Shown here in pieces: positions 4,146-4,451 of a stretch of 4,571 nucleotides of DNA. Made by a program: the position numbers and the translations under genes. The stretch is from a virus. Taxonomy: Duplodnaviria; Heunggongvirae; Uroviricota; Caudoviricetes. Location: IMG/VR virus record IMGVR_UViG_2541047905_000006; one strand, 5' to 3'. The notes beneath the pieces are model-generated. The model worked only from the letters and a program-made list of their open reading frames with translations. It was not told where the DNA came from and made no database searches. The first letter of the stretch is position 1, and every line of letters begins with the position of its first letter.

Positions 4146-4451
4146 ATGGCAGAGCAAACCTCGCGTCTCGCAATAATTATTGATAGCACTGGAGCAAAAA
4201 ATAATGCTGACAATCTGACCTCCTCATTAGTCAAAATGACGCAGGCCGGGGAAACTGCTGCAAATAGCGCAGGGAAAGTGACTAAGGCAACAGAAGATGA
4301 GAAGAACGCGCTCGCAAAATTAAAAGCAGCTATTGATCCAGTTGGTGCCGCAATTGATACTGTCGGTCGACGCTATTCTGAATTAAAGAAATTTTTCGAT
4401 AAAGGGCTTATTGATAAAGAAGAATATGAATTTCTTGTCCGTAAACTTTGA
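4146..4451 (+). pseudogene. N-terminal fragment (101 codons) of the tail tape measure protein, truncated by IS insertion
   Basis: GGAG 4133-4136 upstream of ATG 4146. Protein [20 protein letters not shown]... resembles in pattern the lambda gpH N-terminus MAEPVGDLVVDLSLDAARF (from memory) and sits where the tape-measure gene is expected. The stop TGA 4449-4451 is the first three bases of the IS terminus. Confidence 0.55.

Follow-up and report, generated by a model that had tools for sequence, protein, structure and literature searches.

The window, a stretch of 4,571 nt, corresponds to positions 5856–10426 of scaffold KE701845.1 (L002) in assembly GCA_000460555.1 of UMEA 3174-1, a clinical, non-O157 Escherichia coli, where it forms the contig between two N-gaps, with both contig ends inside an insertion sequence (IS). 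The same IS end occurs at both extremities of the window in inverted orientation, such that 4449–4571 is the reverse complement of 89–211 (123 nt, 99%). Between the two IS ends, at 212–4448, the ORF list together with Pfam and PHROG profile searches revealed colinear siphophage late genes, all on the plus strand. The left IS copy (1–211, plus strand) contributes its 3′ end, with the C terminus of the transposase OrfB running to 169 and the IRR terminus, which ends in ...GGGGCGGTTCA, running to 211. Fused to this terminus is the 3′ remnant of a P22-type major capsid gene (212–404, plus strand; last 63 codons and stop), which matches the phrog_283 major head protein at profile positions 321–383 of 385, shows identity with the intact relative from 212 on, and is annotated in relatives as P22 major capsid family. 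It is followed by five intact connector genes (447–2175, plus strand), each assigned by a PHROG match (E values 1e-28 to 1e-55): those for a small phrog_1514 protein (447–623), a head-tail adaptor (627–1022), a head closure protein (1022–1405), a tail completion or neck protein (1406–1786) and a tail terminator (1783–2175), the last also matching Pfam Phage_tail_terminator_5. The tail tube gene (2202–3164, plus strand) encodes 320 aa and matches PF18906 Phage_tube_2 (E 1.9e-32) and phrog_290 (E 2.5e-111).

Downstream of the tube gene lies a tail assembly chaperone pair (3213–3982, plus strand), which comprises a ydaY-like ORF at 3213–3674 and matches phrog_313 (E 3e-46), phrog_1189 and, weakly, PF23812. 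A slippery A AAA AAG is located at 3662–3668, two codons before the stop of the ydaY-like ORF, and the −1 frame, which has no stop between 3638 and 3982, encodes the phrog_1189 or Phage_TAC_18-like segment, so that the predicted pair matches a programmed frameshift of the lambda G/GT type. Public annotations list the two parts of the chaperone separately, one as ‘protein YdaY’ and the other as a ‘hypothetical protein’. Terminator-like hairpins with a short GC stem, a TTCG loop and a T-run occur at about 413–436, after the capsid stop, and at 4106–4119, where CCCAC-TTCG-GTGGG is followed by the T-run CTTTTTGTTG (together 4106–4129, plus strand) just 5′ of the next start codon. Both hairpins are identical in the intact relative, which makes them native to the late operon, where antitermination presumably lets transcription pass.

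The last ORF of the window (4146–4451) starts with ATG and comprises 101 codons and a TGA stop, and the sequence shows a ribosome-binding site, GGAG, at 4133–4136 (plus strand), 9 nt 5′ of the ATG. Its start codon at 4146 is the NCBI start of the intact gene in E. coli 90-1 (NZ_CP050047.1; L001 9447), where the same start opens a 3234-nt gene whose 1077-aa product is annotated ‘phage tail tape measure protein’ (TMP). Pairwise alignment of the window with the intact 90-1 gene gave 100% identity over 4100–4448 and complete loss of similarity from 4449, where the window reads TGAACCGCCCCGGGTTTCC, the IS terminus, and the intact gene reads AATGAAACC. Codons 1–101 of the 1077 thus occupy 4146–4448 (plus strand). 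The last of them, CTT at 4446–4448 (plus strand), is the left copy of a 3-bp target-site duplication, arranged as CTT–IS–CTT in L002, and the TGA at 4449–4451 (plus strand) is formed by the first three bases of the IS inverted repeat, as seen in alignments to both the intact gene and the IS1203 copy described below. An earlier note on this DNA had described a tape-measure gene with a normal ribosome-binding site and start that is cut after codon 101, runs exactly to the IS end and is closed by the first IS triplet, and the comparison with 90-1 bears this out in full. The gene also sits where a TMP gene is expected, 3′ of the tail tube and frameshifted chaperone and 5′ of the distal tail genes. 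When the 101-aa product was compared with tape-measure families, as the note had proposed, it gave N-terminal matches to phrog_3827 (E 6.1e-20, residues 3–100 on profile positions 2–117 of 393), phrog_24 (5.9e-12) and phrog_1506 (1.5e-8); a Pfam profile search found no TMP domain within the first 101 aa. The stub represents 9% of the full TMP, with the remaining 976 codons lying beyond the IS. A SHOCT-like motif (PF09851) at 4380–4448 (TMP residues 79–101) ends exactly at the IS cut; as a SHOCT domain of the stub it was rejected, with E 4e-4 and 20.4 bits against a cut-off of 27, and the motif, which belongs to the native TMP sequence, probably has no meaning.

As a reference for the IS we used a complete 1310-bp copy in the O157:H7 strain Z570 (L012), annotated ‘IS3-like element IS1203 family transposase’. 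The right IS copy of the window (4449–4571), of which the window holds the IRR end before it stops inside the element, has its transposase on the minus strand and is 99.2% identical to the reference over 121 nt, and the left copy is 99% identical over 211 nt. On the IRL side, which lies outside the window in L002, identity to the Z570 copy is 94.5% (216 and 219 nt), and the interiors of both copies are N-runs. The first 25 positions of IRL (TGAACCGCCCCGGGAATCCTGGAGAC) and IRR (TGAACCGCCCCGGGTTTCCTGGAGAG) agree at 23, making them imperfect inverted repeats of the 5′-TG ... CA-3′ type. Within the visible coding sequence, the C-terminal 55 aa of OrfB gave weak rve_2/rve_3 matches below cut-off, and the N terminus of OrfA gave a weak HTH_Tnp_1 match. 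Judged from these ends, the element appears to be of the IS629/IS1203 type within the IS3 family, a label at the level of the group rather than of a precise isoform, as IRL is only 94.5% identical to the O157 copy. IS1203 is an isoform of IS629, which generates target duplications of 3–4 bp and of which 62% of copies in O157 genomes sit in prophages or prophage-like elements (PMC3271280). Each IS terminus opens with TGAACC, and because both therefore start with TGA, about one third of insertions into coding sequence would be closed by the first IS triplet. The donated stop would accordingly be a predictable by-product of insertion, with no special feature or statistical oddity about it.

The rest of the gene, which the earlier note had suggested looking for downstream of the IS, is present on the next contig of the same scaffold. 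The outer (IRL) end of the right IS copy lies at L002 11980 and is followed by CTTAATGAAACC, where CTT is duplicated and the intact sequence resumes exactly; after the IRL end, CTTAATGAAACCACAGAGG gives the intact TMP from exactly the next base, strand and frame both being kept and CTT flanking the IS on either side. In-silico removal of the IS and one CTT yielded an open 1077-aa ORF; aligned to the 90-1 protein, its product shows 99.26% identity and 0 gaps. In the portion beyond the IS, the Pfam profiles TMP_2 (E 8e-81, 271 bits), Tape_meas_lam_C (91 bits) and TMP_4 (86 bits) all match above their cut-offs, and 3′ of this portion L002 continues with Phage_min_tail, Phage_tail_L, NLPC_P60, Lambda_tail_I and GpJ genes, which resemble those for gpM, gpL, gpK, gpI and gpJ. 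This 3′ part is without a good start: the gene caller chose a TTG at codon 109 of the intact gene (L002 12002), with GAGG only 2 nt upstream. The N-runs inside the IS copies of L002 comprise 791 and 1335 N, whereas a 1310-bp element would call for about 883 and about 967 bases. Because the one long assembly leaves both IS interiors as N, the complete sequence of the element and the linkage between the TMP halves rest on scaffolding and on the exact target duplication.

To the left of the window, L002 encodes a CorA-like protein, a DEAD helicase, an ATP_bind_3 protein (ttcA) and a truncated integrase (254 aa) directly adjoining the left IS at its IRL end, and this flank is 99.3% identical to dbpA-ttcA-intR of E. 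coli 90-1. The 90-1 prophage at this site belongs to the Rac family, with xisR, rcbA, ralR, recT, recE, racC, kilR, sieB and trkG, and it also carries lysis genes, terminase, portal and head genes. In UMEA 3174-1, the left IS joins an intR missing some 156 N-terminal codons to capsid codon ~316, and the missing interval amounts to 34,250 bp in 90-1 coordinates, removing the integrase N terminus and the early, lysis, packaging and head genes. The flanks of this IS (L002 4849–6066 region) read GTT and GGC, without a target duplication, and the loss would have arisen either as an IS-associated deletion or by recombination between two IS copies. The 90-1 prophage used for comparison (L013 11301–19437) itself contains an IS911 copy and, in addition, a block of apparently non-phage cargo (an MFS transporter, a LysR regulator and a BCCT transporter). 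Its minor head gene is frameshifted and its C40 peptidase gene is interrupted by a stop, so that it may not be fully functional either.

The TMP sets tail length and is needed for tail assembly, a role established for lambda gpH. The earlier note had held that tail assembly from this locus should be impossible, which is correct but moot, as about 34 kb from intR codon ~156 to capsid codon ~316 is gone as well: with this much deleted, no particles of any kind could be made, and the loss of the TMP is over-determined.

We propose that an IS629/IS1203-type copy transposed between TMP codons 101 and 102 of the Rac-family prophage next to ttcA in UMEA 3174-1, and that the 3-bp target CTT was duplicated on insertion. 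The phase of the insertion matches the 5′-TGA terminus, closing the upstream frame on the first IS triplet and leaving a 101-codon N-terminal stub, with 976 intact codons past the IS that lack a translation start of their own, so that the TMP gene is expected to be null for tail assembly. The insertion would be one step in the IS-driven decay of the prophage, a second step being marked by the oppositely oriented left IS at the ~34 kb deletion. The CTT on both flanks of the right copy is within the 3–4 bp range reported for IS629 (PMC3271280), and the exact 3-bp duplication, the shared strand and frame of the two halves and the undamaged remainder together point to a simple and fairly recent transposition. 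We put the probability that a simple IS629/IS1203-type insertion into a Rac-type TMP, within IS-driven prophage decay, explains the stub at about 0.95.

To see how widely this arrangement is shared, we compared the site across genomes. With a 301-nt probe across it, the uninterrupted site was found in 1064 of 5426 complete E. coli genomes, where the matched genes are annotated ‘phage tail tape measure protein’ or, in K-12, ‘ynaA’. Neither IS junction of the window occurs in any of the same genomes (0/5426), and an exact scan of a species-representative genome collection with the 51-nt right junction gave no match; the junction is strain-specific. An exact look-up of the 101 aa returned ten contigs, among which the true junction is present in three places only, L002, L005 and L007. 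L005, represented by four samples (SRR786082 and three more), contains the same segment bounded by IS on both sides. L007 (SRR15853321) has the same TMP junction, and its other IS end (IRL) lies inside the tube gene at about window position 2641/2642 (L007 1–30), which indicates further IS-mediated erosion of the module in related strains. Each of the L007 IS ends differs at a single base within the G/T run of its inverted repeat. The junction could mark a lineage of the few strains that carry it.

Two further sets of matches were set aside. The other seven of the ten contigs (L003, L004, L006 and L008–L011) were rejected as IS junctions because they end 0–2 nt past codon 101 and are contig-end fragments; four of them, with 1–2 extra bases, continue with the A or AA of the intact type, and three stop exactly at CTT. 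An insertion site shared with O157, suggested by matches extending ~20 nt past the IS end, was likewise rejected, the flank there being unrelated DNA of a tail-fibre region with a chance match to AATTTCT.

Several other ways of producing the same sequence were weighed against this insertion. The 101-aa ORF might be a natural, free-standing small gene that merely resembles the N terminus of a TMP, as it has its own ribosome-binding site and start codon, and GenBank and RefSeq enter the product as a complete ‘hypothetical protein’ (EQX54347.1, WP_021561815.1). However, its stop codon lies inside the IS, and the other source-named short proteins in its 90% cluster are mostly labelled ‘partial’ by their sources. 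The earlier note had named short proteins ending at this very point in IS-free relatives as the observation that would speak against a cut gene; what the relatives have at the same start is a 1077-aa TMP that reads through codon 101. This small-gene reading is refuted by the alignment, the reconstituted 1077-aa ORF and the uninterrupted site in complete genomes, and we give it practically no chance. An assembly chimera at a multi-copy repeat is conceivable in principle for a short-read draft contig that, like the window, stops within the repeat at either end; yet the contig runs from unique phage sequence into 123 nt of IS, the next contig supplies the reciprocal junction and its target duplication, and the independent assemblies L005 and L007 carry the same junction, which brings the probability of an artefact close to zero.

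The two TMP halves could also have been parted by an IS-mediated inversion or deletion, with their adjacency in the scaffold being artefactual. The two IS copies bordering the window are inverted, the left one clearly mediated a deletion, and the unsequenced IS interiors are N-runs that do not have the right length, all of which would fit such a rearrangement. Against this, the intact gene resumes at exactly the next base with a perfect CTT duplication and with strand and frame preserved, and an exchange with a further IS copy would have swapped one flank and destroyed that match, making the rearrangement very unlikely. We also considered whether the IS-bracketed 4.2-kb segment is a composite transposon and rejected this: the inward ends are both IRR, the outward ends are both IRL and the left copy has no target duplication, and one insertion and one deletion suffice to explain the arrangement.

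A simple transposition into the TMP gene is an event of an ordinary and already known kind, a routine IS629/IS1203-type insertion in a decaying Rac-type prophage remnant. The closest parallel is IS629/IS1203 in the prophages of Sakai-type O157:H7 strains (Rump et al. 2011, PMC3271280; Ooka et al. 2009 as cited there), with which the element shares its terminal TGAACCGCCCCGGG repeats. The 3-bp duplication, the preference for prophages and the deletions adjoining the IS are shared with those elements (PMC3271280), whereas the host here is non-O157 and the site at TMP codon 101/102 is one that is occupied in none of the 5426 complete E. coli genomes. Seen alongside them, the locus offers a textbook case of IS629 prophage decay, with an insertion that has a target duplication beside a 34-kb IS-associated deletion that has none.

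K-12 Rac provides a second comparison, as its ynaA/tmpR belongs to the same family and lies at the same ttcA-intR attachment site, and both are truncated TMP remnants in a defective Rac. K-12 ynaA equals codons 1–311 of the same TMP at 99%, and K-12 ydaY is the same chaperone gene at ~99%. The K-12 gene differs in that it was cut at codon 311 by a deletion joining it to lomR, with loss of the 3′ part, and is annotated as a pseudogene without a C terminus, whereas the UMEA 3174-1 TMP was cut at codon 101 by an IS and its whole 3′ part is present and open. E. coli T28R (NZ_CP142708.1; L015 2848–3921) has an independent IS1A at codon 107 of the same TMP, 18 nt past the IS629 site, which indicates that IS insertions in this TMP recur. 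As in UMEA 3174-1, the IS disrupts the gene and the 3′ remainder is kept, and the NCBI annotation has a pseudogene there, together with a 970-aa ‘tape measure’ ORF; the T28R insertion differs in belonging to the IS1 family and in that the upstream neighbours shown, connector genes through chaperone, carry intact annotations. For UMEA 3174-1, the corresponding annotation fix would be to treat WP_021561815.1/EQX54347.1 and the downstream 970-aa ‘tape measure’ ORF as one IS-disrupted pseudogene. More generally, the module follows the lambda gpH-type TMP with G/GT in its order of tube, frameshifted chaperone, TMP and gpM/L/K/I/J-like genes, and in having Tape_meas_lam_C and TMP_2; it differs in that the UMEA 3174-1 copy is broken, and nothing new on TMP function is implied.

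The late-gene regulatory and early region upstream has been deleted, the two terminator-like hairpins precede the TMP start, and the only obvious source of transcription would be the left IS, whose transposase gene is directed towards the module and could be read through. Expression of the stub is likely to be low or none, and the stub probably has no function. Its intact ribosome-binding site and start might still suggest that it is transcribed from the upstream IS and acts as a dominant-negative decoy that poisons the tails of co-resident or superinfecting Rac-like phages. Such a role, which would turn the product of an IS insertion into a small anti-phage factor, strikes us as extremely unlikely.

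Further downstream in L002, a 10-N gap at 19072–19081 falls inside the gpJ-like gene, with ~900 bp of J present on both sides of it. The 90-1 J sequence at L001 15931–16844 is matched twice in L002, at 97.7% and 95.8%, and this doubled J sequence probably reflects either a mis-joined scaffold or a second allele of J that comes from another prophage.
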